Shown here: in pieces, positions 1,620 through 60,906 of the stretch
Numbering within the stretch: the first letter of the stretch is position 1
How the letters are laid out: every line of letters begins with the position of its first letter
Source of the DNA: Patescibacteria group bacterium
Lineage (GTDB): Bacteria; Patescibacteriota; Dojkabacteria; J137
Assembly (NCBI GenBank): GCA_016861265.1
Contig: BOLA01000001.1
Location: 934,150 to 998,149, forward strand
Length of the DNA: 64,000 bases
Direction of reading: 5' to 3'
Translations under genes and position numbers: made by a program
The notes under the pieces: generated by a model
Databases searched by the model: none
Told to the model about the DNA's origin: nothing
What the model saw: the letters and a program-made list of their open reading frames with translations, nothing else

Positions 1620-1647
1620 GAGCGGCGAAGTTAAAACTTCGCCGCTC
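1620..1647. repeat. Perfect palindrome downstream of the orphan gene 1676-2539
   Basis: GAGCGGCGAAGTT-AA-AACTTCGCCGCTC, no T-tract. Confidence 0.85.
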
Positions 1648-1675
1648 GGCACATTTGCACTAACTATCAGATCGG

Positions 1676-2539
1676 TTATTCACAACCTACAACGGTTAAA
1701 GAGGCATCTCCCGCGTTAATAGATGCATTCGTGACAAAACTTGTGACCGCCGAAGTTGTCATGTATTCAGTCCACCCTGCTTCTATACCGCGTGCAACCA
1801 TTGCAACACTTATCTCCTCAAACCACTTTCCAACTTTTGAATCAACCTGAAGTTGTGTAGAAGTTGAGAAGCTTTGTAATGAGGAAGTAAGCAAAAGTGT
1901 GCCTGCCGTATTAAAGATCGGGAGAATGTAAACATTCCCGAATGTATATATTCCCGGCAGAGTGACCGAATTAATGCGTGGACGGTTCAAGACTGTGCAA
2001 TTGGTATCGACTGCATTTGAAAATGCCTCACCGGTCATTTCACCGTTAAAGGCTTCTACGTCACTTACGCAGTCGAATACCACCATCATCTGCGGTGCAT
2101 TTACTGTATCCACAGAGAACACAAAATCGGTGTCTGCTTCAACAGTATTGACCGAAGATACTGTAAAGGTCTTTGCCACAAAATCAGCTTTGCCCCGATA
2201 CAGTGTAAAACCATAGGTTTCCGAATGTAATGTTACCTGCCCTGTTGCACCACTCAGCGAGAATGCAAGCCACTTACTCAAATATAGGTAGTAGCGAGCA
2301 GAAACTCCTTGACGAGTGGTTGTGAAGAAATTCACCTCGCAACGATTTGGGGTGGGAGTAACATCTCCTTGTGCCTGCAACACGAGCTGTTGCGAAGCAG
2401 CTACTTCTGTTGGCTGAACCTGTTGTGTAAGCGCCGAATCCAGCGTTGGCGATGGTTCGTCCTGTGCACCTACAATAACAAAGGACAACATGAGTGGCAG
2501 AATCGCCAAAAGCACCGATAGCACTACAGCTCTCTTCAT
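1676..2539 (-). CDS. Secreted hypothetical protein (signal peptide ending AQD), distant paralog of 11126-12220
   Basis: GGAG SD before ATG, hydrophobic N-terminus, shared Cys-bracketed domain (PNRCEVNFF...MMVVFDCVS). Confidence 0.8.
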   Translation of the reverse strand: MKRAVVLSVLLAILPLMLSFVIVGAQDEPSPTLDSALTQQVQPTEVAASQQLVLQAQGDVTPTPNRCEVNFFTTTRQGVSARYYLYLSKWLAFSLSGATGQVTLHSETYGFTLYRGKADFVAKTFTVSSVNTVEADTDFVFSVDTVNAPQMMVVFDCVSDVEAFNGEMTGEAFSNAVDTNCTVLNRPRINSVTLPGIYTFGNVYILPIFNTAGTLLLTSSLQSFSTSTQLQVDSKVGKWFEEISVAMVARGIEAGWTEYMTTSAVTSFVTNASINAGDASLTVVGCE

Positions 2540-2575
2540 TTATATAGCTCCGTGATTTCACTGACTCTCGATAGT

Positions 2576-2620
2576 TGTAGTCAGCTGAATAACTTAATAA
2601 AAATCATTCAGCTGACTACA
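2576..2620 (-). promoter_or_regulatory. 15-bp hairpin in the 5' UTR of 1676-2539
   Basis: TGTAGTCAGCTGAAT...ATTCAGCTGACTACA, lying between a minus-strand TATAAT (2669-2674) and the start codon. Confidence 0.6.
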
Positions 2621-2698
2621 CGTGTTAATGTGCGTTATCAATTATTAGTAACAATAACTGGTTCTGGGATTATATCGCGATTGAATGATAAAGCATAG

Positions 2699-2725
2699 TT
2701 TAGGTGAGGATTTACCTCACCTAAA
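2699..2725 (-). terminator. Hairpin immediately after the HtrA gene
   Basis: TTTAGGTGAGG-ATTTA-CCTCACCTAAA. Confidence 0.6.
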
Positions 2726-2727
2726 GT

Positions 2728-3909
2728 TTATTCTTGTAATATTACTTTTACTTCTATCTCTTCTGTAGCACGTAAGAGCTTAAGTGTAACTTCGTCTCCT
2801 ACTCTATAACCTTGAATTACCACATTTAATGGTCTATTCTCTGTAAGTTTCTCCCCATCTACTTCAAGTATAATGTCACCTTCCTTTAAACCAGCCTTTT
2901 GTGCAGCACTATCGGGAACAATTGCTGGATCCCCTGCTAGTGAACCTTTGACAATTAGAGCACCAGTATCCACAGTTAGATTATTACTCTTCTTTAGATC
3001 CTCATCTATCATTCTGAATCTCACACCCAGTTTAGGTCTTAAGATCTTTCCGTCAGTATTTAATCTCTGTAGTAGTTCAACAACTACATTGGATGGTATT
3101 GCAAAACCAATTCCGTTTGCATCACTTGCTACAGCAACATTCACCCCGACAACATTACCACTTAAATCCAATAACGGTCCGCCAGAGTTTCCAGAGTTAA
3201 TACTAGCATCTGTTTGAATTACATCGTAGAGTTGTTCAGCTGAACCGCCCAATCTATCGGTTGCAGTTATGTTTCTGCCAAGTCCCGAAACAATTCCTGA
3301 ACTTACTGTATTACTGAATTCACCAAGTGCATTACCTATAGCTACAACAGTTTGCCCAACTTTTATTTGGGATGAGTCCCCAAAATTTAGTGGAATTAAA
3401 TTATTAGCTTCAATTTTTAGAAATGCAATATCCAACAAAGTGTCTTTTGCAAGAACTGTAGCTGCATATTTTTGCCCATCATTTAAAACAACTGTGTACT
3501 CAGCCTTTTCTTCGTCAACTACATGTCTGTTTGTAATAATCATTCCATCTTCACTGATAATAAAACCTGTTCCTGCTGCTACTTCCTGAAGCTTATCGGC
3601 ATCTGTTGAATTGTCAGTATTGTTATCTGGTAAGCCAAAGTATCTTAGAAATGGATCTGATCTTAGATTCTCAATGTCTGATACATGTTGAGATACGACA
3701 ATACTTACAACAGAATTCGATGATTTATTTGCAACATCTATTACTGCTTCTTCTTGATTTGTAACCTGTAATTGATTAACAATGCCGCCCGTTAAGGTAT
3801 TCACGGTTGCATTCGATAATCTTGCCCCGACTATACCTCCAAATAAACCAGCACAGCATGCCAGTAGAACAGTACCGCAACTAAAAACTATAAGACCTAA
3901 TTTACGCAT
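2728..3909 (-). CDS. htrA: HtrA/DegP-family serine protease with PDZ domain
   Basis: GTGFII, TNRHVV, DIAFLKI, IQTDASINSGNSGGPL; C-terminal PDZ; N-terminal TM segment. Confidence 0.95.
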   Translation of the reverse strand: MRKLGLIVFSCGTVLLACCAGLFGGIVGARLSNATVNTLTGGIVNQLQVTNQEEAVIDVANKSSNSVVSIVVSQHVSDIENLRSDPFLRYFGLPDNNTDNSTDADKLQEVAAGTGFIISEDGMIITNRHVVDEEKAEYTVVLNDGQKYAATVLAKDTLLDIAFLKIEANNLIPLNFGDSSQIKVGQTVVAIGNALGEFSNTVSSGIVSGLGRNITATDRLGGSAEQLYDVIQTDASINSGNSGGPLLDLSGNVVGVNVAVASDANGIGFAIPSNVVVELLQRLNTDGKILRPKLGVRFRMIDEDLKKSNNLTVDTGALIVKGSLAGDPAIVPDSAAQKAGLKEGDIILEVDGEKLTENRPLNVVIQGYRVGDEVTLKLLRATEEIEVKVILQE

Positions 3910-4006
3910 AATTAAATAGTAATATTTATAAGCAATTAAAATTCTATTCCTGTTTTATGAATTTTTTATGAAAATAAATTCTTGGCAATAACATTAGCAA
4001 ACATTA

Positions 4007-4723
4007 CTATCTTCGTTTTCCGGTTATGCTCAATACTCTTATGAATAGATTTACAAAATCCAGATAAAGTTGAAGAGCACCTATAATGGCATATCTTCCA
4101 TAACCTTGCCCACTTGCCTCTGCCTCGGCAGCCAGTCTTTTTAAAGCATTTGCATCGGAAGCAATTAATACACTGAATATAATTACCACAACATAATTTA
4201 ATATTGCATTAAGACCATTAAACAATGGCGAGTTAAGCAACAACAAAACCAAATTAACAATACTAACCAGAATTACTCCAAACAGTGCAAATAAGGCGAC
4301 TGCTTGCCATCTGCTTAAATCCTTTTTAGTTACTAATCCATATACAGCAAGCACTAAAAACATTAGCGAAGATATACCGAAGGCAACAAATAGTGAACTT
4401 ACTGTGTAATTAATTGCAATTATTCCTACGGTCAAACCACTTATTAATGAATAAACAATGAATAAAATACTTGCCAGCGCAGCATTTAAACGTCTACCAA
4501 GTGCGGATAATACAACCACTAGAATTAGCTGAACTATTAAGACTGGAAAAAATAAAACTGAAAAAAGTACTAATAGTTGTGCTGATTGAGAACTTAAAAT
4601 ATTAATAATAAATGCGATTACACCAGTTAGAAATACTCCGATAGTCATCCAGCCGAATACCTGTGCTGTAAAGGTACCATTGGCAGCTACAACAGATCTG
4701 TTATCTAAATACGAATTTTCCAT
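4007..4723 (-). CDS. Bax inhibitor-1/YccA family membrane protein
   Basis: Seven TM segments, C-terminal GALQLYLDFVNLF motif. Confidence 0.9.
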   Translation of the reverse strand: MENSYLDNRSVVAANGTFTAQVFGWMTIGVFLTGVIAFIINILSSQSAQLLVLFSVLFFPVLIVQLILVVVLSALGRRLNAALASILFIVYSLISGLTVGIIAINYTVSSLFVAFGISSLMFLVLAVYGLVTKKDLSRWQAVALFALFGVILVSIVNLVLLLLNSPLFNGLNAILNYVVVIIFSVLIASDANALKRLAAEAEASGQGYGRYAIIGALQLYLDFVNLFIRVLSITGKRR

Positions 4724-4784
4724 TGAATTCTAATAACAAATAATTATTAATATTATACATCTACAGTACCTTAATTATGCGCAC

Positions 4785-5858: not shown

Positions 5859-5937
5859 GTTTATATAATACAGTACAAACTTAATATTCTAAATAGTAAG
5901 TCTTGCGTGTATTAACATTAATTGCAATAATCACCAT

Positions 5938-10840: not shown

Positions 10841-11125
10841 ATATTAATATTGATTGAGTGGGCTAACCCATTAATGAGTATTAATATACTCGATCTTTGA
10901 CAACTGTATTTTACAGTTGTAGAAAATTCTTAATTAATTGTATGGCGCAAGTCTGCAATCTTTAGGAAGATTCTCTCAACTATTGCTTTAATAGTCCAAG
11001 TACTCGCTATGGGTAAATAGTTAATAAGGTTAGCTGTTTACCCGTAGTGGAGTACATCCTTAAGGGTACTCGACGCGGTAGGGCATTTGCCCGACAAATC
11101 TAGTTCGACTCTATGGAGGACAGTC
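10841..11125 (+). promoter_or_regulatory. Long structured 5' leader with boxA-like element
   Basis: GATCTTTGACAA at 10892-10903; several hairpins including a ~25-bp stem at 11000-11055; GGAGG at 11115-11119. Confidence 0.6.
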
Positions 11126-12220
11126 ATGTTCAACAACAATCGTACGGCTCGTATCGTGATGCTGCTGGTTCTCGTAATCGGCAGTGTCTTCACCAGTGTG
11201 ATGAGCGTCTTCGCGCAGGATGTTGCTCCGGTTTACCCGGTCAACGACCCCGCGAAGTGCGACTTCACGTTCGCGTACAACGGCAGCGGCGGCTGGAATG
11301 TCCAGCGCTACCTTCAGGACAACGGCGATGGCATCGTTCTCGTTACGACGCAAGAAGGTTGGGGGGAAGTGACTTCGGACACTCCCTTCACCGTCTTCGT
11401 CGGCACGTGGGAAGACGCTTCGCAGTCTGTCGTGAATCAGGGCGCAGGCGTTCTCGCAGTGGCTGAAGAGAACCGTTTCGCGTATCGCTTCGGCGAGGAT
11501 GCCAAGCTGGCAGTCGGTCAGGCGCTCGTTATGGTGGCAAACTGCACGCAAGGCGTGGCAGTCGATGCCCCGGCAGCGTTCCCGCCCAACGACGCGGTTT
11601 GCGATCCCACGTTCTGGCGCGAAGGTTCGGACAATCTCGGACGCAAGTTCGTTGACGGCTCTCGCTTGCTGCATTTCGCGGCGGGCGAAGTTGACGACGC
11701 GGCTGTTGGTTCGAACGTCCCGTTCCTCGTATTTCGCGGCATGATCGATGGCACGGGCAACCTCGGCTCTCCGGTTCTGGAATACAGCTACTCCCCCGAC
11801 GGCACGACCTTCAAGTACGTGATCTCGGCGGCGAATAAGCTGGCGCAGAACGAAGGACTGATGGTCGTCTGGCCCTGCCTCAGCGGCGCTGAACACGACG
11901 GGTTTATGACCCACATCACCACCGTCCCGAATGTGGACTGGTGCGGCGCTCACGTAATGGCGGCGGGTTCGACTGAAACCGTCCCTGCCAACTGCGTGGT
12001 CTCCGGCGATGTCAAGGTCAACGGCACGGCGCTGTACGACAACGTGGAAGACACGGGGTTGGTGGTTGCCATTGGTAGCAACCCGGTTGAAATCTACGCT
12101 GAGTGGGGCGCGAGCATTTGGCCCGCGGGCACTGTCCCGCAGACCGCCCACGATGCGTTGGTTCTGACCGGCTGCGCCGATGCGCTCGGTTGCCGCGTTG
12201 TTACGGTGAGTAACCAGTAG
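11126..12220 (+). CDS. High-GC secreted hypothetical protein with two copies of a Cys-bracketed domain
   Basis: GGAGG SD then ATG 11126; signal peptide ending AQD; repeats PxND..CD.TF...PF.VF.G...KLA...L..V..C; ~60% GC in sampled lines. Confidence 0.85.
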   Translation: MFNNNRTARIVMLLVLVIGSVFTSVMSVFAQDVAPVYPVNDPAKCDFTFAYNGSGGWNVQRYLQDNGDGIVLVTTQEGWGEVTSDTPFTVFVGTWEDASQSVVNQGAGVLAVAEENRFAYRFGEDAKLAVGQALVMVANCTQGVAVDAPAAFPPNDAVCDPTFWREGSDNLGRKFVDGSRLLHFAAGEVDDAAVGSNVPFLVFRGMIDGTGNLGSPVLEYSYSPDGTTFKYVISAANKLAQNEGLMVVWPCLSGAEHDGFMTHITTVPNVDWCGAHVMAAGSTETVPANCVVSGDVKVNGTALYDNVEDTGLVVAIGSNPVEIYAEWGASIWPAGTVPQTAHDALVLTGCADALGCRVVTVSNQ

Positions 12221-12264
12221 CAGCGATCCGAACCTGACCAAAGCAATAGGCGAGAAAAGAGTAA

Positions 12265-12289
12265 TCCGGACACCCTTGTGGTGTCCGGA
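12265..12289. repeat. Palindrome after the high-GC gene
   Basis: TCCGGACACC-CTTGT-GGTGTCCGGA. Confidence 0.75.
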
Positions 12290-12350
12290 CTCGCTTTAAG
12301 TAGATTTCTAAAAGTCTTTTTAAAGTGAGTTAAATTATTTAAAAAACACT

Positions 12351-12731: not shown

Positions 12732-12830
12732 ATGAAAAAGCTCGAGAATGTAATGAGAACCTTGGCAATTGTCAGTTTGGCAGTTGTTTCTGCTGCCATT
12801 GGCATTCTATGGGTGATTGTTACACACTAA
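12732..12830 (+). CDS. 32-aa hydrophobic peptide (not in the ORF track)
   Basis: AAGGA SD, then MKKLENVMRTLAIVSLAVVSAAIGILWVIVTH*, immediately followed by a 15-bp palindrome. Confidence 0.65.
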   Translation: MKKLENVMRTLAIVSLAVVSAAIGILWVIVTH

Positions 12831-12832
12831 AC

Positions 12833-12867
12833 TTTAGGGCGGAAGCATCTTCTGCTTCCGCCCTAAA
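12833..12867. repeat. 15-bp perfect palindrome
   Basis: TTTAGGGCGGAAGCA-TCTTC-TGCTTCCGCCCTAAA. Confidence 0.85.
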
Positions 12868-12876: not shown

Positions 12877-15800
12877 ATGTTAAAGATGAAAAAGAAATCA
12901 CCTTTATTCAAATTGATAAATCCTATTTGGAGTCGTAAATTTATAATTATCCTCTTTGTTCTATGGATTCTTATTTGCATAGCAAATTTTAGCCCGGACA
13001 CATTTTTAACCGGCTGGGATAATCTTCACCCTGAGTTTAACTACTCAATGAATTTAAAGAGGCTACTAACAAGTTCCTGGGCTGAGTATCAAGGTCTAGG
13101 CGCACCCGGTGCCCACTCACATGCTGCAGAAATTCCTAGAATGTTTATAGTGGGTATTTTGAACTTAATTTTTGAAACTAATCTAGTTAGGTACATTTTT
13201 ACCTTTATAACTCTGATTATTGGAGTAATAGGTATTTATTATCTGGTCAACAATATCTTCTTAAAAAGAAAAGAAAAGAAATTAAGAGAGTTTTCGGCAT
13301 TTGCAGCAGCACTTTTTTACATGCTTAATGTGGGTACTGTTCAGCACTTTCAAGCACCCTTTGAAATGTTCAATGTTCAATATGCATTACTGCCCTGGCT
13401 TATAGTACTTGCAATTAAATTTCTAGAGACAAAAAAATACAAATATTTACTATATTTTTCTGTAGTGACTTTTTTTGCTGCACCAATGGCTTATGCAGTT
13501 ATGCTATGGATTGCCTATTTTGGAGGTCTCACAATATTCTTGCTTCTAAACCTTGTATTTCAACGAAAAAAGGATTTAATAAAACCAAGTATTTTTCTTT
13601 TATCCGTCACTATTCTAGTAAATCTATTCTGGTTAGTACCAAACTTATATTTTGTATTCAATCATAGCAATTACGTACCAACTGCAAAAACGAATCTTAT
13701 TTTTTCAGAAGAAGCGTTTTTAACGAATCAGAAATATGGAAACCTGGTAGATATTTTCTTGAACAAGGGGTTCTTGTTTGACTGGCAAATTAGAAATCCA
13801 AATTACACTTTTGAACCTATTATGGGTAAATGGGATAGTCACATTGATAATCCGATTGTATTATCAATAGCCTTACTAAGCTTTGCACTTATTGTTGTGG
13901 GCATACTCTACTCAATTTATAGAAAACAGAAGTATTTAATTCCATTGATTGGTGTACTTGTATTTGCAGTTATCGTGATTATGGGTACTAATCCACCATT
14001 AGGAGGGGTTTGGGAAGTGTTAGTTGCTAAGATATCGGTGCTGCAAGAAGCAATTAGGTTCCCATTTACCAAATTCTCTATTTTATTTATATTTACTCAA
14101 ACGGCCTTTCTAGGCTTGGGTACCTATTCTGCAGCAAGATTAATTACAAAGAGAATTCACTTTCAATATGGTTCAATTTTTGCATTGCTATTTTTACTTC
14201 TAATATCTGTAGTCTATTCTCTTCCTACATTCCAAGGTAACTTTATTAATAAATCCCTTAGAATTGATATACCAAACGATTATTTTGAATTATTTGATTA
14301 TTTTAAAGATCAGAATAAGGCAGAAAGAATTGCTAACTTTCCTGTAAATACTCTTTTCGGGTGGTTTTATACCGATTGGGGGTATCAAGGATCGGGGTTT
14401 CTTTGGTATGGAATAGAACAGCCAATCTTAGATAGAGATTTTGATAGATGGTACACAACATTAGAAGATTATTACGACAGCGTAAGTCAAGCTGTATATA
14501 CAAACGATGCAAATTCATTAAAAGATGTTCTTAAAAAGTATGCAATTGATTGGATAATAATTGATGAACATGTTGTATCTTCCAGCGAAGATAACAACTA
14601 TTCTTTAAATCCTGATCTCGCATCGTCAGAAATGGCCTATAAGGAAACAAAGGCTTTGCTTGAAAAAATTCCTGGAGTCGAGCAAAAAGCGGTGTTTGGA
14701 AAAATTTATGTCTATAAAATATCGGGCCTTGATACAGATAATTCTTATGTAGATGTTCTAAATAACGATGCAGAAGGTCAGCCAATAGAAAGTAAGAATG
14801 CTTTTATCGAGGATAATTTTGGAAGAAAAAGTGAGGAAACCTACTTTGAGAAAATCTCAAACGATAATGTTAATTATATAAATAATGTATATACGCTTAG
14901 CAACGAACCAGGTAACTTACATCTTCCTCAAATTTATGATTCCGAGAAGAGTATTCCAGTAAGAATTGCAGCTCGAAAGAACAGCTCTTCCGTTAATATT
15001 AGACTAACCTATCAGATTCCTACAATATACGTAAATGACCAAAGCACTGTAAATGTAACAAAAGTAAGAAACCTTAATTTCGATATTGCAAATCAGTCTT
15101 CCAATTATTACCTAGATATTAATAATCAACAGTTACTCCTTGAGGATATAGATAATGCGTGGAAGATATACGGTTTTATGGATGTAGCATTAGATAAGGA
15201 TTTAGTAGCAAACTTATATAATATTGATGATGGAGAAAACATTACATCAAGACTAGATCTGGAAAAAGCACAAATTAATAATTGTTCTGGTTCTGCCATA
15301 GCTAAAAGCTCTTCAGTTTCTTTTGTTAATGATGTTCTTAACTTTAGAAGCACTGGTGAAAACATTTGTGTCGAATTTAAAATTAGCACCTTGAATACTG
15401 TTAATAGTTTGTATCGACTTGAGATGGAATATAAAAGTAATCAGGGAGTTATCGGGGACGCATGCATAAAATTTGACGCAGGTTGTGTTAATACAAAAGA
15501 ATTTAGGAGCGATTATCTGCCTACTTTCTGGTATAAATTTAATACTTTTGCAAAAGATGAAGACTCCAATAATTTTAGTACTGCGTTAGTATTCAATAAC
15601 TCATCTCCAGAAAATACTGCATCCATAGGTTATAGAAACGTAAAATTATATAGGTACGAATTGGATGATCAGGTGGTAATAAAGCTAGAAGATATCAAGA
15701 ACGATCTACGTTTTGCTAATACCGATATACCTATAAAACCGATAAATACCAAACTTACCTTCAAATTTATTCTACCGACTAGTAAAATTTATAATTTTGA

Positions 15801-16734
15801 TTACACTGCTCTTCAGCAAATTTTATCTTTAACGGCAAAGGATTGTAAACCATACGTAGATTCAATAGAGCTTGATAGAAGTCTTGATTCTGTAAATAGA
15901 CAAATTGATTTTAAATCTATAGATGGATTTAACTGTGATAATCTAAATTTGTACAATATTAATCTAAAGAATGGTTTCTTAATTAATATTGAAGGGGAAA
16001 ACAAGTCAGGTCCAGGATTAGTGTTAAATGTAAGCGACTTTTACTATAAGAAGGTATATTACACGAATAGACTTCCTCAGAATTCTAATTTTAGCGAATA
16101 TTTAACTATCCCTAATTTAATTGATTCCGCTTCTAATGGTTTGAATATTTTTATTAATAATCAATCAGTTGGTAACAAAGAAACTATAAACTCCATTAAG
16201 AATATAACTGTAAGCCCAATAATTTATAGTTGGCTTTCAGGCATAGAATATCAGTCTGCTCCCCTATTTAGCTCAGATAATAGCGTGATTAGTGTAGATA
16301 AACTTACTACGACAAATTACAAAATTGAGTTGAATCCATCAAGTTCTGATAGAATACTTAAATTCAATCAGAGCTACGAAGCTAACTGGCTAGCCTACGA
16401 CGATAAAGGTAATCTGCTTAATCGGCTAGGAACAGTAAATAGTAATACAGAAAAAGCGGAATGGAACAACTATTGGATTCTTCCGGCTGGAGTGTCGGGA
16501 GTCTTTATTGAATATAGAACTGAGACTTACCAATATTTAGCGTACGTGATAGTCGCATTCTTATTTGTGGTTCTTACCGTTGCATCTGCATGGCAAAGTA
16601 ATAGGTATATTATTTTTGTTACCCAAATTAAAAAAGCATACAAGAAACAAAGAAGAAAACACATGCTTTTTGTCGAAAGAAATATTGAGCCGAAACTAGA
16701 CCGATTCAAGAAGTTTAATAAGAAAGATCTCTAA
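12877..16734 (+). CDS. Large membrane protein with an N-terminal GT-C-like polytopic domain and a large extracytoplasmic region
   Basis: GWDNLHPE luminal motif, about 12 TMs, RFPFTKF, beta-rich Cys-containing C-terminal region, C-terminal TM. Confidence 0.7.
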   Translation: MLKMKKKSPLFKLINPIWSRKFIIILFVLWILICIANFSPDTFLTGWDNLHPEFNYSMNLKRLLTSSWAEYQGLGAPGAHSHAAEIPRMFIVGILNLIFETNLVRYIFTFITLIIGVIGIYYLVNNIFLKRKEKKLREFSAFAAALFYMLNVGTVQHFQAPFEMFNVQYALLPWLIVLAIKFLETKKYKYLLYFSVVTFFAAPMAYAVMLWIAYFGGLTIFLLLNLVFQRKKDLIKPSIFLLSVTILVNLFWLVPNLYFVFNHSNYVPTAKTNLIFSEEAFLTNQKYGNLVDIFLNKGFLFDWQIRNPNYTFEPIMGKWDSHIDNPIVLSIALLSFALIVVGILYSIYRKQKYLIPLIGVLVFAVIVIMGTNPPLGGVWEVLVAKISVLQEAIRFPFTKFSILFIFTQTAFLGLGTYSAARLITKRIHFQYGSIFALLFLLLISVVYSLPTFQGNFINKSLRIDIPNDYFELFDYFKDQNKAERIANFPVNTLFGWFYTDWGYQGSGFLWYGIEQPILDRDFDRWYTTLEDYYDSVSQAVYTNDANSLKDVLKKYAIDWIIIDEHVVSSSEDNNYSLNPDLASSEMAYKETKALLEKIPGVEQKAVFGKIYVYKISGLDTDNSYVDVLNNDAEGQPIESKNAFIEDNFGRKSEETYFEKISNDNVNYINNVYTLSNEPGNLHLPQIYDSEKSIPVRIAARKNSSSVNIRLTYQIPTIYVNDQSTVNVTKVRNLNFDIANQSSNYYLDINNQQLLLEDIDNAWKIYGFMDVALDKDLVANLYNIDDGENITSRLDLEKAQINNCSGSAIAKSSSVSFVNDVLNFRSTGENICVEFKISTLNTVNSLYRLEMEYKSNQGVIGDACIKFDAGCVNTKEFRSDYLPTFWYKFNTFAKDEDSNNFSTALVFNNSSPENTASIGYRNVKLYRYELDDQVVIKLEDIKNDLRFANTDIPIKPINTKLTFKFILPTSKIYNFDYTALQQILSLTAKDCKPYVDSIELDRSLDSVNRQIDFKSIDGFNCDNLNLYNINLKNGFLINIEGENKSGPGLVLNVSDFYYKKVYYTNRLPQNSNFSEYLTIPNLIDSASNGLNIFINNQSVGNKETINSIKNITVSPIIYSWLSGIEYQSAPLFSSDNSVISVDKLTTTNYKIELNPSSSDRILKFNQSYEANWLAYDDKGNLLNRLGTVNSNTEKAEWNNYWILPAGVSGVFIEYRTETYQYLAYVIVAFLFVVLTVASAWQSNRYIIFVTQIKKAYKKQRRKHMLFVERNIEPKLDRFKKFNKKDL

Positions 16735-16804: not shown

Positions 16805-17011
16805 ATGGGAGCTAGTAGAAATACCAGAGAAATCGACTGGAACAAGGTCTGCCTAAAGATAGTGCGTGGCCAAATTATTAATGAGCGCAAAAGAAAAATG
16901 GTTCATTTGGCCGCATTCTTAGGTGGAATTGCTCTTGCTGCGATTATCGGTTTTCTGGCAACTGAGGGTATGAACTTTTTAAGAAATATCCTCGGTTTCA
17001 AGGGTTTTTAA
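16805..17011 (+). CDS. Small membrane orphan protein
   Basis: TTGCAA-17-TATAAT promoter (16743-16771), GAGGAGGT SD, one TM, palindrome at 17017-17049. Confidence 0.75.
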   Translation: MGASRNTREIDWNKVCLKIVRGQIINERKRKMVHLAAFLGGIALAAIIGFLATEGMNFLRNILGFKGF

Positions 17012-17152
17012 CCCAAAATAGGGGATGGCAAATTTTTCCATCCCCTATTGCATTTCTATTGAGAATTAAATAAAAAAAATGTATAATTCAACGCTAGAAA
17101 TCGTTAAGTGCATTAAGGGAAAGGTAGATTAACGATGATGGTAGAAAGTGTC

Positions 17153-27016: not shown

Positions 27017-27319
27017 ATGACTACCTTTGGTGCTGTAGAATATAAGGGTGATCCTTGGAAAGAAGGTTCTTCACCTTTTGTTAATGCAGCAACACAGGTT
27101 CAAATAACTGAGCAGACTGATCATGCGCTCTATCTGCTCTACTGGAATCTAGACATAGGTGGAACCCCTATCCCACAAGATGTTAAGGATCTTGCTCTAG
27201 TGGAATGGGAAAGAAGATATCCATTTAGATGCTCACAGACAGATAGCTGTGAGTGGTGGGCAGGATGGATGAATGATGTTGTGAACCGCAGGTACGGTGT
27301 TTATACTAAGTCTGCATAG
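27017..27319 (+). CDS. Orphan protein with EWxxRYP motif
   Basis: TAAGGAG SD before ATG 27017; palindrome AAGCGGAAGAC-AGA-GTCTTCCGCTT at 27329-27353. Confidence 0.75.
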   Translation: MTTFGAVEYKGDPWKEGSSPFVNAATQVQITEQTDHALYLLYWNLDIGGTPIPQDVKDLALVEWERRYPFRCSQTDSCEWWAGWMNDVVNRRYGVYTKSA

Positions 27320-27424
27320 TAGCTACAGAAGCGGAAGACAGAGTCTTCCGCTTAAATTACTGCAATTAATTTCGGAATTCCAACAATTTTTGTTAACATT
27401 ACTTACTTTACCTGAGGAGGTAAT

Positions 27425-27694
27425 ATGTTTCCCTTAATCACTGTCGTAGGCAGGGAAGGCAGTCAAGGTGCAGTGCTGAATGACTTTAGAACTAGAGTCC
27501 CCATTGCACAACAAAATAACTTCGGTCTTTTCGCAATTATGTTTAGCTGCGAAATTGACGGAGTTGCCGTTACATGCGAAGTTCAAAGGGCTGCAGCTGA
27601 GGAATGGAGAAAACGCTACCCAGAAGGTGTATCGAAGGATGCAAAGTCGTGGGAATTTTCTTCAGACCAAAAAGCTAATGAACTGTTGGATTAA
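27425..27694 (+). CDS. Orphan protein with EWxxRYP motif (paralog of 27017-27319)
   Basis: GAGGAGGT SD; palindrome at 27702-27729. Confidence 0.75.
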   Translation: MFPLITVVGREGSQGAVLNDFRTRVPIAQQNNFGLFAIMFSCEIDGVAVTCEVQRAAAEEWRKRYPEGVSKDAKSWEFSSDQKANELLD

Positions 27695-27773
27695 GCATGT
27701 TTTAAAGAGGGCTTCCTCGCCCTCTTTAAGTATATTCTCATGATATAATTATATAGTACTGTGTGGAGGTGAT

Positions 27774-28103
27774 ATGAAGGCCTATCATCCAGATGCAGAA
27801 TTTCCCGTAATAGGGAACTGGCAACAGGCAACTACTCAAGAGTTGCTTGATGCATTGAATCATTCCAGACCGTTCGTAATCGAGGGCGTACTAGAGGACT
27901 TCGATGGAGAGAACACTGGACACGAAACATTCTGGGCTTATAGGAGTGAGGGTTCGAATAAAATCGAGTACATCGAAAGTGCCAGCATTGCTTTTGATCA
28001 GGCGATGATGTCTCCTTACGAGTCGACTCGATACGACTTCGAGAACTACTTCGGTTATGTTACGGAGGAAGGTGTACTTTTTCTCTACTACATAACAGCA
28101 TAA
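27774..28103 (+). CDS. Acidic orphan protein
   Basis: TGnTATAAT at 27741-27749, GGAGGT SD, palindrome CCCGAGACATT-GCGA-AATGTCTCGGG at 28109-28134. Confidence 0.75.
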   Translation: MKAYHPDAEFPVIGNWQQATTQELLDALNHSRPFVIEGVLEDFDGENTGHETFWAYRSEGSNKIEYIESASIAFDQAMMSPYESTRYDFENYFGYVTEEGVLFLYYITA

Positions 28104-28185
28104 ACAAACCCGAGACATTGCGAAATGTCTCGGGGTAAGTTAATTAGAATGATAAAATATATTCAATATTGGTTATTTAGGTTGT

Positions 28186-29453: not shown

Positions 29454-31283
29454 TTATACAATATGAAGAAAGAATGTTTGACTCCACAGCCAGTTGACTG
29501 TATTCCCATCCCTAGAATATGTATACATATTCCACATATACGTAAACCAGTAACCTCCCATTACTGCAGTATTACCATTTGCAGTTTTAAACCAAACTTT
29601 CTTAACTCTTTTCGAAGGGTCTCTCTCTAATTCAATTTTTGTAACCGCCTCACCAAGATCATTCTGCATATTTCTTGTATAGTTACTAAACTCTTGTCCA
29701 TATGGTCCAAATGAAGAAGGATTATTGATAACAAAGTCTATCATTTCATTCACTTGATGCATCGTGTAGTTTGATGTTTTATAGCTCCAATTCTTATTTC
29801 TGCCACCAGGTAGTGGTACAGCGAACGCAGAGTCATTAACAGACTGTAGATATGGATAATAAGCCCCAGTTCCATCGTATTCTTGGAACATGGTATCCGA
29901 ATTTGCAGTACCCCAACCTTGGTTGTTATCAGCTGAATATAGTGAATTGATTATTTTCTCACTATGAATACTATTAGAGTGTTTAATTACAATACCTCTT
30001 GTTTCCAAAGCTGCCCATGAGGAGTAATTGGAACCATTATATACCTGGCATGATGCCGTAGAACATATGTTTGGATTATAGAGTGCATAAGTTCTGTAAG
30101 CAATTACCTGTGCTTTAATAGCTTCTTCTGGCCAACAATCCCATAGCAAATTTGGATTATCAATGACATATTTATTTGGATTTTCAGAAACTTGTTGTGT
30201 TGAGCCACAGGCTCTTCCGGGTACTTCTCCTTGACCCGCAACATATTCTTCTATATTTCGTGGTCCATATCCGCTAACATTTACTGTTCTATTTTCATAA
30301 CCACCTTCTAGGTATACACCATTATAATAGAACGCTAGTATTTGAGACGCAGACATCCCAGTTTGTGCTGCACCAAACGCACCCCATTGACTTAAGCCTA
30401 CTTGATGTCCTTGACTATTTATATCATCACCAAACCCACAAAAATATATAGAATTATTTAAATTGTTATCGTCATATATTCCGCATCCCCCAACGCTTTG
30501 TCCACCACCACCTGTTTGTTGTGCAATCTCAGCTTGTCTTCTTAACGCCTCGCTCTGTGCTGCACTTAATTCATTTATCGTCCTGTTTATAGCAGAGATT
30601 TCACCTTCCAATTCCCCAATCTGATTCCCCCCAGAGGCTATAACATAATTATAATATGCAATTGCTTCTTCAATCTGCTGTTTCTTTGCTTCTAGTTCGT
30701 TCTTCTTGTTTTCAAGACTACCCACTGCCGATTCACTGGCATTAATTTGATTGTTTAAGTCTTCAATTTGTGTTCCAACCTCTTTAATGCCATCATCGCT
30801 ATATCCTAATATTTTAGATGCTAGAAACGTTCCCATGTTATTCATTCTAGGATCGTCCAAATTAGCAGATGAAACAAAACTATCTTTTTTTATTCTCCAT
30901 TGCTGGTAAGCTGAATCGAGCGCCCCTTGTTGTTCAACAATCAGTTTTTGCTTAATAGACTCTTTTAAATCATTTTCCTGTTTTAATAGCTCAAGTTGCT
31001 TCTTATTTAATTCCAATTCCTTTACATTAGCTTCGAGTTCAGCCTGAAGTTTTGGTAGTCCTTCTTCGGCATTCGCTAGGTTTGCCTGACTATTTTCAAT
31101 TTCCGTTTGAAGGTTCGAAATATCATTTTTAGTAGCCTCCAGTTGGGCTTTCTGATCGTCAATCTCCTTTTGTATTTCTGCCGCTGTTTGTGCTTGAGGC
31201 GTGATATTAATGAAGGGCGTAAAACCTACAGCTGCAATTAAGAGAATTATAAGAAGTTTTTTAAGTGTAAATTTAATAGTCAT
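29454..31283 (-). CDS. Secreted coiled-coil protein with SpoIID/LytB-like domain
   Basis: Signal/TM, long coiled coil, GHQVGLSQWGA, ILAFYY, EEYVAG..EVP, WPEEAIKAQVIAYRTYA, CSTASCQVY. Confidence 0.85.
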   Translation of the reverse strand: MTIKFTLKKLLIILLIAAVGFTPFINITPQAQTAAEIQKEIDDQKAQLEATKNDISNLQTEIENSQANLANAEEGLPKLQAELEANVKELELNKKQLELLKQENDLKESIKQKLIVEQQGALDSAYQQWRIKKDSFVSSANLDDPRMNNMGTFLASKILGYSDDGIKEVGTQIEDLNNQINASESAVGSLENKKNELEAKKQQIEEAIAYYNYVIASGGNQIGELEGEISAINRTINELSAAQSEALRRQAEIAQQTGGGGQSVGGCGIYDDNNLNNSIYFCGFGDDINSQGHQVGLSQWGAFGAAQTGMSASQILAFYYNGVYLEGGYENRTVNVSGYGPRNIEEYVAGQGEVPGRACGSTQQVSENPNKYVIDNPNLLWDCWPEEAIKAQVIAYRTYALYNPNICSTASCQVYNGSNYSSWAALETRGIVIKHSNSIHSEKIINSLYSADNNQGWGTANSDTMFQEYDGTGAYYPYLQSVNDSAFAVPLPGGRNKNWSYKTSNYTMHQVNEMIDFVINNPSSFGPYGQEFSNYTRNMQNDLGEAVTKIELERDPSKRVKKVWFKTANGNTAVMGGYWFTYMWNMYTYSRDGNTVNWLWSQTFFLHIV

Positions 31284-31372
31284 AGTGCTGCTAACAGTAT
31301 AAAGACTATAGAATGGTTTGGCAAATTGCGGAGGAATAGGGCGAAGTTTTACTTCGCCCCTCACTTGGTTGA

Positions 31373-31693
31373 CTATTGTTCAAGGGTGAGTAACACCTCG
31401 TTTAGAAACTGTTCGTCAACTTGTGATTTATGTTGGATGTCCAGACCACTTAATTCAAACGAGAAATCAGCTCTCATCTGATTTAAACGATCCTTAATCC
31501 AGTATAAACCGCTAAACAGGTTAAGTCTTTGCGCGATCAAAATGTCACCGTTGCACTCTTCATAAAGCTTGCTTGCGGTCGCATAAAATGCTGCTGCCAA
31601 GCCTTTCTTTGAAAGTGCAAGTACACGCTGATCTTCGCATTTCAATTGTACCCCTGTTAAAAGTACAATTTCGGCATCTTCTACGGCAATCAT
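31373..31693 (-). CDS. Orphan protein
   Basis: TCGACT-17-TACAAT promoter, AGGAG SD, palindrome GGGCGAAGT-NNN-ACTTCGCCC at 31339-31359. Confidence 0.7.
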   Translation of the reverse strand: MIAVEDAEIVLLTGVQLKCEDQRVLALSKKGLAAAFYATASKLYEECNGDILIAQRLNLFSGLYWIKDRLNQMRADFSFELSGLDIQHKSQVDEQFLNEVLLTLEQ

Positions 31694-44251: not shown

Positions 44252-44440
44252 ATGGACAATAGATTGCACGTACTTACCCAGAAGCAACTCGAAGAATTTG
44301 GTACATTGTGTGTTGCGGCAGCCGGATTTGGATTAGAATCCACAGCCCTTAAACAACAATGGGAAGCCTCTGAAAAAGAGGCTAAAGAGGCTTTTGAGTC
44401 AGTACGCCACATTTACGTAAAGTCGGTAGAAAAAATTTAA
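44252..44440 (+). CDS. Small orphan protein
   Basis: TGnTATAAT at 44210-44218, AAGGA SD, palindrome GAAGGCGGTCG-TT-CGACCGCCTTC at 44458-44481. Confidence 0.7.
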   Translation: MDNRLHVLTQKQLEEFGTLCVAAAGFGLESTALKQQWEASEKEAKEAFESVRHIYVKSVEKI

Positions 44441-44566
44441 AATCTACTGCTTTGCTCGAAGGCGGTCGTTCGACCGCCTTCTGAAATTCTATTATTCTAT
44501 AACGCTAATCGGGTTAAATCACAGTTTATAATTCCCAAAAAAGCAATTGAACGATATAATATTAAT

Positions 44567-49438: not shown

Positions 49439-49543
49439 ATGAAAAAGCCCAAGAAGGTTACACGCAGGAAGACACGTCTTAAGGAGAAGGGTAAACAAAA
49501 ACCGACAGCAAAACATGGGCAGAATGTGTGTAACGGGCATTAA
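49439..49543 (+). CDS. 34-aa highly basic peptide (not in the ORF track)
   Basis: TTGAAC-17-TATAAT (49379-49407), TAAGGAG SD, MKKPKKVTRRKTRLKEKGKQKPTAKHGQNVCNGH*, 16-bp palindrome at 49561-49594. Confidence 0.6.
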   Translation: MKKPKKVTRRKTRLKEKGKQKPTAKHGQNVCNGH

Positions 49544-49623
49544 ATAGTAGTATTGGTGGTATTATGCGGGTTATGTTTACATAACCCGCATAATCAACTA
49601 CAGATTAAGACTAGATTGTTTAG

Positions 49624-55656: not shown

Positions 55657-55659
55657 ATT

Positions 55660-55730: not shown

Positions 55731-56141
55731 ATGAGTCTGCTGACAGTTAATTACAGCGGTTCTGCTATGGCTCAAGCGCTTCCCAAGCCAGTGGGTCATG
55801 GCAATCCTCGGATAATGCTTTCCGAGTTTGGTAGTGAGGTGGAAACCGAGCTGATCAAGGCGCTGGGAAATCAGACCATTCTTCCTGTGGGCATTATAGG
55901 TACTAGTGGCGCACAGCCGTTTGGTGTAAATGCCCGCAATCGTGGAAGTGTTGAATTGCTTTTGGAACTGATTTCCCCTGTGGAGCTAGATTCCGAGGGT
56001 GTTCATGAACTTGCCGTTATCATGAGGCGTGCTGTATTGGACCTATTCAATACGCCACGTTATCAGGGCGGCAGTTATGAGCAGCTCGAGGTTCTGTCTA
56101 TGGTGGTTGTTCACAGGGGTGTATTAGTTTCTAAAGGCTGA
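55731..56141 (+). CDS. GC-richer orphan protein, probable paralog of 58496-58927
   Basis: TGnTATAAT at 55690-55698, AAGGAGG SD, palindrome TGCGGGAACTGC-AA-GCAGTTCCCGCA at 56158-56183. Confidence 0.75.
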   Translation: MSLLTVNYSGSAMAQALPKPVGHGNPRIMLSEFGSEVETELIKALGNQTILPVGIIGTSGAQPFGVNARNRGSVELLLELISPVELDSEGVHELAVIMRRAVLDLFNTPRYQGGSYEQLEVLSMVVVHRGVLVSKG

Positions 56142-56249
56142 CAACCAACGAGCTTGGTGCGGGAACTGCAAGCAGTTCCCGCATAAGTAACTACATATAG
56201 TTTTAATTGATTCCTGAAATTGTTTTTGTTGAAATTTGTATAGAAAGTT

Positions 56250-56705: not shown

Positions 56706-56902
56706 ATTAAGATATTAACATATACTTTTAATATTCCAAACATAAATTCTATAATATTTATAGACCATGAAAGTTTCTTAAAAATGCAAACTATGTATTA
56801 AAAAATATGAGCCGGTATGTAAGTTAATTGTAAATTCTAGGTCAAATATATAACCCTCGTCTCAATTAAATAGTAGAATAAATTATTATTACATTTTTTA
56901 AT

Positions 56903-57412: not shown

Positions 57413-57421
57413 ATTAATAAT

Positions 57422-58386: not shown

Positions 58387-58495
58387 TAGTATTGATAAAA
58401 ACAACTCTTTCAGAATACCATATACTTTTAGAGTTATACAATAGATATATATTGTTGTGATATAATCATTCCATCGCACATTAAGGAGGTTCTAA

Positions 58496-58927
58496 ATGCC
58501 AGTAGTAAGTGGTTTGTGGGATCAAGGACGAGTGTTCGCAGCACTCACTTGTAATCCCGAAGAGCAGCATACACAAGCCGAGGCACTAATGCTTGAGTTG
58601 TTTGAGGCAGCGCAAGCTGTTCTAGTCAAGCAACTTGAGGTTGTGCCGACGGGTATTGTGTTCTTCTGCGAGAAGCAGCCGATGCTCACCATAAATTCGT
58701 TCCCGCTGGAATTCGCCATTCGCAGCACTAAAAGCAAGGAATGGGGAAACAGGGATGATCAGCAAGAGATTATCCGAAAAGTCCTCAAGCGAATGCGGAA
58801 GGTGCTTAGGGCGTGGACTGAAGCCAAAAGGGCTAACTTTAGCGGTTGGCAGATTGGCATGGAGCTCAGCTTTATCGAGCTGTTCGCTACCAGCGAGGCG
58901 GTGGAAGAAGAAGCTGCTACGGAATAA
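58496..58927 (+). CDS. GC-richer orphan protein, possible tautomerase/MIF fold (Pro-1)
   Basis: TGnTATAAT at 58458-58466, AAGGAGGT SD, hairpin at 58938-58966; begins M-P-V-V. Confidence 0.75.
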   Translation: MPVVSGLWDQGRVFAALTCNPEEQHTQAEALMLELFEAAQAVLVKQLEVVPTGIVFFCEKQPMLTINSFPLEFAIRSTKSKEWGNRDDQQEIIRKVLKRMRKVLRAWTEAKRANFSGWQIGMELSFIELFATSEAVEEEAATE

Positions 58928-58971
58928 CCGTGCGACCGAGGGGAGCGGAAAGCAAACGTTCCTCTCCAAAT

Positions 58972-59475
58972 TTATGCTTCTAGAGTTTCTTCTAGCATGT
59001 AGCTGCCTAAATTCATTTGTATCGAATAGTTATTAAGAACTTCGAGTGCTGTAAAATATGGCTGTGAATAATCGATTCCATTGCGTCTGCTGTCTTTTAT
59101 AAGAAATTGAAAGAATATTCTAGATAGTTGGTACATTGATTGTTGTGTTACTACAATCCTGTATTCCTCCGCTTTAAGATCGTCACTTGTGTAATAGGGG
59201 CCATTATAGTTAGGAATTTCTGCGTAAATATTGTTTTCTTCTATGCATTCTAATAGAAATCGAATGTGTTCCATAATTTCTGCAATTAAATCAATTGCCC
59301 TACTCTGAGGATTAGATTCGGAAAATTGTGTATTTAAGTGGTTTGGTCCAAAGATACCGGCAACAATTCCTATTAATTCGGCTTCCATTCTTACAATTGT
59401 AGCAGTGTTTAATGAATATTCCGGCGATGAAGGGGTACGTTTAAACCCAAGAAGATTGAGTACACTCATTAGCAA
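58972..59475 (-). CDS. Hypothetical protein
   Basis: 167-aa ORF, no recognised motif. Confidence 0.55.
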   Translation of the reverse strand: MLMSVLNLLGFKRTPSSPEYSLNTATIVRMEAELIGIVAGIFGPNHLNTQFSESNPQSRAIDLIAEIMEHIRFLLECIEENNIYAEIPNYNGPYYTSDDLKAEEYRIVVTQQSMYQLSRIFFQFLIKDSRRNGIDYSQPYFTALEVLNNYSIQMNLGSYMLEETLEA

Positions 59476-59539
59476 AATTTAACAAACAGGTTCAAAGGCA
59501 CTGTAGCAGAATATGTTTTGTTATGGAACCCTAAAAATA

Positions 59540-60145
59540 TTACTGACTAATGGGAAGATTGGTGGTAGTCAGGTATTTGTGTAGCTGTTCTTCTAAGTTC
59601 CAGAGTGCTTTTCGTGGTGATTCAATATCGTATAAGTAATAATATTCATAATCTACAATATCTATTATTGTGCTGATTAAATCTGTAAATTCATAAACAA
59701 CAATTTTGGTATAGTTATTACTAAAAGAAATTGTATTTACTAACTCAATAAGATAATGTTCACTCATTCCATCTTTTAAATATTCTTTTATAAGAAAATT
59801 TAATGTTTGTGTATATTCTTGTTTGAATGTATTCTGATTTTCAAATCTCATATTTTTGATTTCTTGATAAAGAAATTTTGTAGATCTTTCTTGTGTTGGC
59901 TCGACTTTTATATTTTCTAAGTAAGGCCAAATTTTTAATCTAATTTCTTCTATTTTTTTATAATCATGGTTATTAACCACGCTGGATTGTGTTAATAGTT
60001 CAAGAATATTCTTTAAATTCTTATCTGCAATATTTTGATTTAAATGACCATGAGCAATAGTAATAATATCGGATCTGCTTAGCTGTCCAATATAATATTT
60101 TTTTAGGTTTTGTTGAATTTCTTTAGTATTCTTCATCATTTTCAC
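59540..60145 (-). CDS. Hypothetical protein
   Basis: Very AT-rich 201-aa ORF overlapping 60123-60437. Confidence 0.55.
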   Translation of the reverse strand: MKMMKNTKEIQQNLKKYYIGQLSRSDIITIAHGHLNQNIADKNLKNILELLTQSSVVNNHDYKKIEEIRLKIWPYLENIKVEPTQERSTKFLYQEIKNMRFENQNTFKQEYTQTLNFLIKEYLKDGMSEHYLIELVNTISFSNNYTKIVVYEFTDLISTIIDIVDYEYYYLYDIESPRKALWNLEEQLHKYLTTTNLPISQ

Positions 60146-60437
60146 CGTGAATATATGTTGGAATACTTAAAGTTTGGGAAAATTCTTTTAACAATTCTAA
60201 AATATATGTGTCGTAGTGGGTAATAACCAAGTTTTGGGAATATATTAGCTTAATTGAAACTTCTTTCCTCTTTGCAATCAATACCCCACCTTTTATTACT
60301 TGGCTATTAGTTGAATCTAAATAATTAGTTTCTTTCAAGATTTTAAAGTCTTTCTGACGAAAGAAATTTTCAAATTCTTCAGGTGATAATTGGTTATCCT
60401 CAAACTCTGGTTTTAAAAAGATTAAGTATTTGTCCAT
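60123..60437 (-). CDS. Hypothetical protein
   Basis: 104-aa ORF. Confidence 0.55.
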   Translation of the reverse strand: MDKYLIFLKPEFEDNQLSPEEFENFFRQKDFKILKETNYLDSTNSQVIKGGVLIAKRKEVSIKLIYSQNLVITHYDTYILELLKEFSQTLSIPTYIHGENDEEY

Positions 60438-60493
60438 AACTGATTATATTACAGATATTAGTTGCGAAGGAGTTTCTCCGCAACTAATTTTGG

Positions 60494-60763
60494 CTATTGA
60501 CCGGTCAGGCGGGTGAAAAGATCCCCGTATTCCGCAGGGTTGGGTTCGTTGGTGGACTTTTCGGTGGACGAAGTTGCAGGGCGATCAGTGAGTTCGCCAC
60601 TTGCCCTAGCATCCTCACGTGCCTGATGCCACGCTTCCGAAACTTCCTTCCCGGATGAGTTTGTCCCCTTCATTGCATCGACTTTGTCGTACTTATTACC
60701 GGGGACATATCCTGCATCACGCAGTACCTTTTCGTCCGAATCTTTACCTTTCGGGTCTGCCAT
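60494..60763 (-). CDS. GC-richer hydrophilic orphan protein
   Basis: GGAGGT SD; bulged palindrome at 60457-60488. Confidence 0.75.
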   Translation of the reverse strand: MADPKGKDSDEKVLRDAGYVPGNKYDKVDAMKGTNSSGKEVSEAWHQAREDARASGELTDRPATSSTEKSTNEPNPAEYGDLFTRLTGQ

Positions 60764-60906
60764 CTTGCACCTCCGTGCAACTTTTAAGAACCTCCTAGCA
60801 TTGGCATAGGATTAGTAGGAGTTTATCTTCTTAAAGTATTACAGGCATTGTAATGGGATACAAAAACCTAAGGATATTTTTTAATAATTGGGTAGTGGTG
60901 TCCATT

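Follow-up and report, generated by a model that had tools for sequence, protein, structure and literature searches.

Shine–Dalgarno-led, GC-richer orphan genes of a Dojkabacteria genome form a maintained class of messages predicted to be folded and possibly written for other ribosomes

We analysed a window of 64,000 nt (C1:934150-998149) of G000, a 1.18-Mb, 34% GC genome (96% complete) of a probably host-dependent bacterium of the Dojkabacteria, which belong to the Candidate Phyla Radiation (CPR). A first-pass annotation had described in it 13 dispersed single-gene units, each consisting of an orphan open reading frame (ORF) with a Shine–Dalgarno sequence (SD) and a 3′ palindrome. The units are real and are members of a class of about 80 genes in the genome. 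This class has definite boundaries, is inherited with birth, loss and fast change, and is predicted to fold in excess on the sense strand; SDs are also kept in CPR that lack the anti-SD. The simplest account is that these messages are intended for ribosomes that differ from the standard ones of the cell. On sequence grounds we tentatively propose that they are meant for the ribosomes of a host cell rather than for the cell's own, with a probability of about 0.4.

Genes were called genome-wide with our own script (about 1,200 genes, start positions approximate). The working class comprised 81 genes with a GC content at third codon positions (GC3) of at least 0.36 and an SD of at least 4 nt, overlaps with rRNA and tRNA being taken out, and was compared with 949 core genes. 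Contigs C2 and C3 were excluded from most class tests; many of their genes carry SDs at low GC3, C3 is phage-like in appearance, and both may be foreign contigs or elements. With this caller, an SD word of at least 4 nt was found at 83 of the 94 genes with GC3 of at least 0.37, several of those 94 being false calls over rRNA or tRNA. Since the caller rewards SDs, the test was repeated without its SD term. GC3 then reached 0.36 in 36 of 47 SD-led genes compared to 30 of 694 others (odds ratio 72, p=3e-33), and 32/47 and 132/694, respectively, had a 3′ fold reaching at least −15 kcal/mol in strength. The association of SD, composition and palindrome, for which a genome-wide check had been suggested, is thus far beyond chance. 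It recurs between SD and GC3 in the congeneric genome G001 (SD of at least 4 nt in 19/19 high-GC3 genes vs 35/391 others) and in 94 kb of G002 (7/8); neither G008 (58 kb covered) nor G004 (39 kb) clearly showed the class. Among low-GC3 genes of G000, 17/894 reached −7 kcal/mol in SD pairing.

Within the window, all 13 ORFs were open over their described extents, those at 12732, 49439 and 58496 lying on the forward strand. They are GC-richer, as had been claimed, with GC3 of 0.34-0.75 against 0.22-0.27 for the neighbours ssb, hxlR, ytxH, htrA and the RNA recognition motif (RRM) gene. These five neighbours are without an SD, also as claimed (−1.8 to +3.6 kcal/mol), whereas the units range from −4.6 to −15.0 kcal/mol; an SD is present on all 13 but is weak (−4.6 to −5.8) for 1676, 12732 and 44252. 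Four-fold sites are almost flat in the class (A.25, C.23, G.26, T.26) and strongly biased in the core (A.43, C.11, G.09, T.37). The orphan status was confirmed, since none of the 13 proteins matched Pfam (E≤0.001), compared to 47 of the other 67 window proteins, and none matched PHROGs. Outside the window, 6 of 58 scanned class or class-like proteins (71 listed) passed the Pfam cut-off, and recognisable cargo includes a GH113-GT2 operon, an M50B peptidase, a GHKL ATPase and an ABC transporter. As judged by hydropathy, 44 of 77 class proteins are soluble; a hydrophobic stretch is N-terminal in 23 and internal in 10. Class genes are dispersed over the chromosome on both strands; most are small and solitary, and a few are organised as two- or three-gene operons. 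No paper on such a class turned up in the literature searched, supplements not being covered.

The GC rise of the class follows the limits of the predicted transcript. The units had been credited mostly with their own promoters, and for 8/13 a −10 hexamer is indeed clear within 60 nt; it is weak for 12732 and none was found for 1676, 11126, 27425 and 60494. Long structured leaders precede 1676 and 11126. The TATAAT lies mostly 30-45 nt ahead of class starts, as in many core genes, while some core genes have it at 12-13 nt instead, which suggests leaderless messages. An identical TATAAT is located upstream of ssb and ytxH, so that it is the promoter type ordinary for the organism. GC climbs from 0.26-0.38 to at least 0.40 about 10 nt past the start of the TATAAT and drops 40-50 nt past the stop codon; core leaders dip to 0.16-0.20. 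These positions confine the GC-rich dialect to the predicted transcript.

Coding regions of the class are also predicted to be more folded than their synonymous shuffles. On pieces of 150-180 nt, the mean z against synonymous shuffles was −1.92 for 69 class genes and −0.18 for 70 core genes (p=8e-12), and the excess was unrelated to GC3 (r 0.12). Sense folding was stronger than antisense folding (−5.9 vs −4.3 kcal, p=0.006), in the relatives as well (−8.6 vs −6.6, p=0.017). Each of the 13 units ends, as had been noted, in a 3′ hairpin, with energies between −14 and −26 kcal/mol, and genome-wide 63/71 class genes carry one compared to 45/258 core tandem genes. The hairpins are nevertheless not private to the class, because htrA, ytxH and RRM have them too, and the stems of 11126, 58496 and 60494 are imperfect. 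They were said to have no U-tract; a U-tract (at least 5 T of 8) is in fact rarer in the class, occurring after 7/41 hairpins compared to 26/45 in the core (p=1.4e-4), and class hairpins are both stronger and U-poorer than core hairpins. Rho is encoded in the genome. A single short hairpin-arm motif recurs at 4 sites, 2 of which follow core genes; leaders and hairpins otherwise differ. Pairing between 5′ and 3′ ends showed a modest excess (z −2.7 vs other genes' ends; mean z −0.43 vs shuffled own ends, 6/52 strong), too modest to define the class, and was dropped as a general rule.

We then consider which ribosome could read these SDs. The 16S 3′ end of G000 (near C1:677425), which the first-pass annotation had singled out for checking, retains the anti-SD but reads GGATTACCTCC, with U in place of the canonical C. 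Among 38 genes selected by sequence, which we take to encode ribosomal proteins, rpsU (C1:718471-718674) is the only one led by an SD (−11.9 kcal/mol, the next −4.6). This SD is present in 4/4 genomes of the genus (G000-G003). It reads GGAGGTAAT in genomes with the tail GGATTACCTCC (G000, G002, G003, G008) and GGAGGTGA in those with the tail GAATCACCTCC (G033, G039); the pairs also appear as GGAGGTAAT with GGATTACC and GGAGGTGA with GAATCACC (G033, G039). A strong rpsU SD and the 16S tail are both readable in six genomes, and in these the SD tracks the tail of the same organism. In Bacteroidia, bS21 hides the anti-SD and rpsU is autoregulated, according to the available portions of PMC7797042 and PMC9976891. 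The covariation would therefore be a signature of Bacteroidia-like autoregulation in part of the Dojkabacteria. As far as these sources extend, the common points are a retained anti-SD, SD-less core and ribosomal genes and a strong rpsU SD covarying with the 16S tail; in occlusion of the Bacteroidia type the 16S tail is held by bS21, bS18 and bS6, and in CPR such an occlusion is putative. Bacteroidia differ in having few SD genes besides some ribosomal ones, whereas about 80 accessory, folded and GC-richer genes are SD-led here. Class SDs behave otherwise than that of rpsU. The base after GAGGT is G in 22 cases and A in 4 (19 vs 4 without a gene caller, p=0.003), so that class SDs favour the canonical 16S tail over the cell's own.

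An SD-dependent regulon, one of the explanations first offered, is plausible in view of this rpsU signature. Class transcripts would then be stable, folded mRNAs read by the cell's own ribosomes when these lack bS21, at a particular stage of life (for example on attaching to the host or leaving dormancy), and GC would be high because folding is selected. The intact anti-SD and the covariation of the rpsU SD with its own tail fit such a regulon, as does the lower accessibility of class SD regions (unpaired fraction 0.37, compared to 0.53 for core start regions). In Flavobacterium, moreover, bS21 loss raises translation of strong-SD reporters, in the part of PMC9976891 available. However, class SDs do not track the own tail as rpsU does, and the mean SD pairing across the class, about −10 kcal/mol, is weaker than the value below −13 given for Bacteroidota rpsU in the same portion of PMC9976891, by a different calculation. 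A home regulon is also inapplicable to CPR without an anti-SD, and we hold it unlikely. Host ribosomes are preferred because they alone cover both the anti-SD-less lineages and the bias towards the canonical tail. CsrA was rejected as an SD reader, since no match to it was found in 6 genomes.

The anti-SD-less lineages are found among Paceibacteria, where CCTCC is missing from 24/35 of the 16S tails read, in agreement with the anti-SD loss in Parcubacteria reported in the accessible part of PMC9297842. Two of these genomes, G119 and G143, gave a single small-subunit rRNA match each. SD words nevertheless stand 3-11 nt ahead of the ATG in 45/251 genes of G119, 12/84 of G143 and 8/72 of G069, compared to 0-3 when other spacings were scanned and 1-9 with mock words. 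In G119, SD-led genes end in hairpins more often than others (26/45 vs 37/193). From G143 to G084 a strong SD was kept in 5/12 SD-led genes, with 37-65% protein identity for those five, and in 1/39 SD-less genes; two further genome pairs kept 2/3 and 1/3. The SD was retained in 6/8 genomes for one family and 3/3 for another; among the genomes of these families, the 16S end was not found in G094, G109 and G133. As side observations, isolated SD-led enzymes of G119 (L276, L281, L284, L286, L288), namely S-adenosylmethionine decarboxylase, spermidine synthase, methylmalonyl-CoA mutase, carbamoyltransferase, phosphoribosyl pyrophosphate synthetase and a GCS2-like protein, resemble phage auxiliary metabolic genes. 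Two families of dispersed repeats, about 140-160 bp long and present in many copies, occur in G143 (L264:989-1129 and L264:3463-3622).

If the class is meant for host ribosomes, the following steps could be envisaged. The cell's own polymerase would transcribe class genes from ordinary TATAAT promoters, and Rho together with 3′ trimming would fix the message end at the U-poor hairpin. By analogy with Bacteroidia, bS21 would hide the anti-SD, mature own ribosomes would read SDs poorly, and the folded messages would stay quiet at home. RNA (DNA being less likely) would cross to the host, for which the type IV secretion system of CPR, poor in relaxases, is a possible route. The class proteins would have their site of action inside the host or at its surface, and their fast turnover would be explained in this way. 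The own-type promoters make translation, rather than transcription, the more likely foreign step. A VirB4-like ATPase is encoded in 31/31 genomes, and most CPR type IV secretion systems are without a relaxase in the part of bioRxiv 10.1101/2025.01.22.634366 available. A more specific, phage-like version is somewhat less probable: chromosomal effector genes would yield compact, nuclease-resistant mRNAs, ignored by the SD-blind ribosomes of the epibiont and translated by those of its host. The idea of genes formatted for host machinery, already raised as one of three options, is thus the best supported, indirectly, by the canonical-tail fit and the persistence of SDs without an anti-SD; the promoters, being of own type, do not follow it.

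Several observations weigh against host ribosomes as the readers. As G000 retains its anti-SD, its own ribosomes could read class SDs. The G after GAGGT still forms a G-U pair with the own tail at near-equal energy (−12.9 vs −13.4), G is favoured throughout class transcripts anyway, and the bias in relatives is only 5 G vs 1 A (p=0.22). A strong rpsU SD, reaching −7 kcal/mol, was present in only 11/33 rpsU loci examined across Dojkabacteria. SD-led genes of the anti-SD-less Paceibacteria showed no excess of GC3 or folding and therefore possibly do not belong to the same class as those of G000. Their SDs are also often lost: 7/12 of the G143 genes lose theirs in G084 (some of these being start miscalls), and conservation was 1/3 between G119 and G172 and 0/2 between G119 and G170. 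Pfam matches were obtained for 21/45 of the G119 genes, many of them ordinary enzymes and possibly imports. About 380 kb around the XerC/D-like gene, at 23 loci of other genomes (mostly Dojkabacteria), showed no sign of the GC-rich class, although the secretion ATPase is present in relatives across Dojkabacteria. Finally, to our knowledge no RNA-transfer route between bacteria has been described.

The history of the units was followed in the nearest comparison genomes, G001-G003, which belong to the same genus and are syntenic with most of the window. In-place orthologues exist for 7/13 units (1676, 16805, 27017, 27425, 27774, 49439 and 58496), at 4/13 (11126, 12732, 44252, 60494) the slot is occupied by a class gene that has diverged or is a different one, and 2/13 units (31373, 55731) are found in G000 only. 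Tandem arrays contain paralogues, and gains, losses, tandem duplications and one relocation were observed. The class changes fast: between G000 and 440 kb of G001, orthologue identity was 54% for the class (8 pairs) and 82% for the core (292 pairs), and 8/19 G001 class genes had a reciprocal match in G000 compared to 297/353 low-GC3 genes. Nonsynonymous divergence (pN) was 0.31 in the class and 0.11 in the core. Synonymous change approaches saturation, with pS of 0.80 vs 0.71, so that dS values of class and core are not comparable. In all 15 orthologue pairs, a folding z of 0 or below and a 3′ hairpin were present in both species, with GC3 of at least 0.31. Since composition, folding and hairpins are kept despite near-saturated synonymous change, the dialect is maintained and is not a relic.

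This bears on moron-like import, in which the genes would come from SD-using, GC-richer bacteria or phages and keep the donor's grammar until loss, being poorly read at home. The two units private to G000, the recognisable cargo of some class genes (the 6/58 above) and the many enzymes among the G119 SD-led genes, for which this explanation is strongest, speak in its favour. Phage morons, as described in the part of PMC2920897 available, likewise have their own promoter, a terminator-like hairpin and deviant GC, and lie between conserved genes in hotspots with varied content; at the sequence level the units show a clear −10 in 8/13 and a hairpin in 13/13, mostly without a U-tract. The same portion of that source describes elements unlike ours in other respects, as the units are chromosomal, mostly inherited within the genus, without a donor found and maintained in their dialect, with SD use opposite to that of the core. 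Searches with 11126, 31373, 1676 and the 27017 family revealed no donor, no PHROG matched, and two class families searched for in viral contigs were not found there. GC3, folding and hairpins outlast near-saturated synonymous change, promoters are of own type and the GC boundary coincides with the transcript. We regard import as rather unlikely for the class.

A mobile cassette system, the first of the options originally offered, is not supported. Here single genes would be moved by a recombinase with the palindrome as recombination site. Presence or absence is clean at 31373, 49439 and 1676, G001 has three additional units between the orthologues of 33010 and 33862, and one gene is differently placed in G002 and G003. 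The empty sites that had been looked for thus exist, that of 31373 being the cleanest (3/3 relatives), but this clean indel of about 430 bp shows no target duplication and no att-like sequence at its boundaries. Hairpin sequences vary among units and among orthologues. Only two tyrosine recombinases (PF00589) were matched in this 96%-complete genome, both apparently XerC/D-like, to judge from conservation, and the one in the window is 87-93% conserved in the genus. No unit-removing joint, which would point to excised forms, was seen in same-species contigs of four runs (the triple array at 27017-28103 being covered in 2/4), where contigs drop rare forms; one low-depth diverged contig skips 26862-28191. 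Closer strains sought in metagenome contigs gave a top match of only 47% identity, which was unusable. With most slots occupied in relatives by orthologues (7/13) or by another class gene (4), and no att site, extra recombinase or reverse transcriptase found, such a system is very improbable.

Integron cassettes and clusters of attC sites lacking integron-integrases (CALINs) are single genes each followed by a palindrome, sometimes in tandem, and the units share this arrangement. They differ in showing neither attC ends nor a common site, as judged without an attC model from hairpin arms that are short and vary among units and orthologues, in having no apparent IntI-like recombinase beyond the two PF00589 matches, and in being dispersed on both strands with their own promoters instead of forming one oriented, promoterless array. 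The promoter early stem-loop (PeSL) cassettes of T4-type phages, in the portion of PMC2839356 available, are similar in that sigma70-like promoters and stem-loops flank small, transient orphan genes; PeSLs are, however, recombining repeats that form mini-circles, whereas leaders and hairpins of the class are not repeats.

A local mutational regime, based on a reverse transcriptase or on other transcript-limited mutagenesis, would flatten composition and speed up change, as the near-flat four-fold sites and the pN of 0.31 vs 0.11 might suggest. However, RVT_1 gave no match in G000 at E≤0.1, and T drops as much as A, unlike in adenine-specific mutagenesis. In one strain the triple array differed at 12 positions over 932 nt, compared to 21 in the next 1343 nt (small numbers), and such a regime leaves the SD and the folding unexplained. 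We give it scarcely any weight. A diversity-generating retroelement target was likewise rejected, for lack of an RVT_1 match and of an A-specific change.

Host manipulation by CPR and the cargo of their type IV secretion are open questions, for which the class provides a candidate effector list of about 80 genes per genome. The available parts of PMC9297842 and of bioRxiv 10.1101/2025.01.22.634366 share with our data the loss of the anti-SD and the VirB4-like ATPase, respectively, and these parts contain no mention of SD-led accessory genes or RNA cargo. If the class is indeed meant for host ribosomes, the effectors of any CPR genome could be read off from the SD signature, and the sequence of the SD would give a clue to the host. 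Even under a home regulon, it would be surprising to find so large a set of genes reserved for ribosomes without bS21, and SDs retained by organisms that have no anti-SD. The covariation of rpsU and 16S would carry the Bacteroidia mechanism over to part of the Dojkabacteria.

The individual units are as follows. On the reverse strand, 1676..2539 encodes a secreted-type, all-beta orphan of 287 aa behind a weak SD (GGAG) and a long structured leader, with its 3′ hairpin at 1610-1655. Its G001 orthologue is 72% identical, the slot is closed in G002, and 6 relatives were found among 1.84 billion representatives; the structure model is predicted all-beta, with a best fold match of Z 4.6. The unit at 11126..12220 (+) encodes a secreted-type orphan of 364 aa, with the highest GC3 (0.75), SD GGAGG and a hairpin at 12250-12294. 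Its conserved structured leader (10844..11125, +) has a 77% DNA match to G002, its stems are retained through base changes in G001 and G002, and no Rfam family matched it. The same slot, with a related trailer, holds distant relatives of 463-474 aa in G001 and G002 and a partial one in G003; 4 homologues are unnamed or 'hypothetical'. The 32-aa hydrophobic peptide of 12732..12830 (+; weak SD, hairpin 12835-12865) has SD-led hydrophobic peptides of 33 and 40 aa in its slot in G002 and G003, the alignment not being significant. Between class units, 12877-16734 (+) encodes a protein of 1228-1285 aa without Pfam match, 61-81% conserved in the genus. The unit at 16805..17011 (+) encodes a 68-aa membrane protein, with SD AGGAGGTG, TATAAT at −39 and a hairpin at 17017-17049; its orthologues are 37% (G001) and 36% (G003) identical.

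The triple array starts with 27017..27319 (+; hairpin 27329-27353), a soluble orphan of 100 aa (62% in G001, 42% in G003). Its paralogue 27425..27694 (+; 89 aa, SD AGGAGGT, hairpin 27697-27735) has orthologues of 25% in G002 and 30% in G003. The model of 27017 was confident (predicted local distance difference test 85.7) and gave no fold match (best Z 3.5; viral E≥0.42); these fold-search blanks, for 1676 as for 27017, speak for neither novelty nor absence of relatives. The third member, 27774..28103 (+), is an acidic orphan of 109 aa with SD GGAGGTG, TATAAT at −30 and a hairpin at 28109-28134, 41% identical in G001, and a 33% homologue heads the G003 array. The unit at 31373..31693 (−; hairpin 31339-31359) encodes an ORFan of 106 aa, for which only a 97% copy was found elsewhere. 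That at 44252..44440 (+) encodes a 62-aa orphan, with a weak SD, TATAAT at −39 and a hairpin at 44458-44481; its slot in G003 holds an SD-led gene of 113 aa, without significant alignment. The 34-aa basic peptide of 49439..49543 (+; SD TAAGGAG, hairpin 49556-49601) has a leader predicted to base-pair with the 3′ spacer and is 47% identical in G002, present in G003 and missing from G001.

Further downstream, 55731..56141 (+; SD TAAGGAGG, hairpin 56158-56183) encodes an ORFan of 136 aa not found in the 26 other genomes of the family searched. It shows a weak language-model (Atlas) likeness to phage tail-terminator proteins (score 0.93, few shared features); an anti-phage factor is possible, as a lead only. 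The orphan of 58496..58927 (+; 143 aa, SD TAAGGAGGT, TATAAT at −35, imperfect hairpin 58938-58966) is 28-35% identical in G003 and had no match in Atlas. The last unit, 60494..60763 (−), encodes an orphan of 89 aa with SD GGAGGTG, a distinct leader hairpin and a 3′ hairpin at 60457-60488. In G003 its slot is taken by a gene of 92 aa whose leader is similar but whose protein gives no significant match, the same gene lying elsewhere in G002. The leader (60764-60830, −) has no TATAAT and carries a small hairpin common to unrelated ORFs in G002 and G003; this might reflect a promoter of another type, or a slot open to swapping. The flanks of the window units are housekeeping genes. Within one further gene of the window, encoding a SpoIID domain, a block of the same length is replaced between strains at 29492-30636 (1143 nt skipped, 1167 nt between), which is likely allele swapping.

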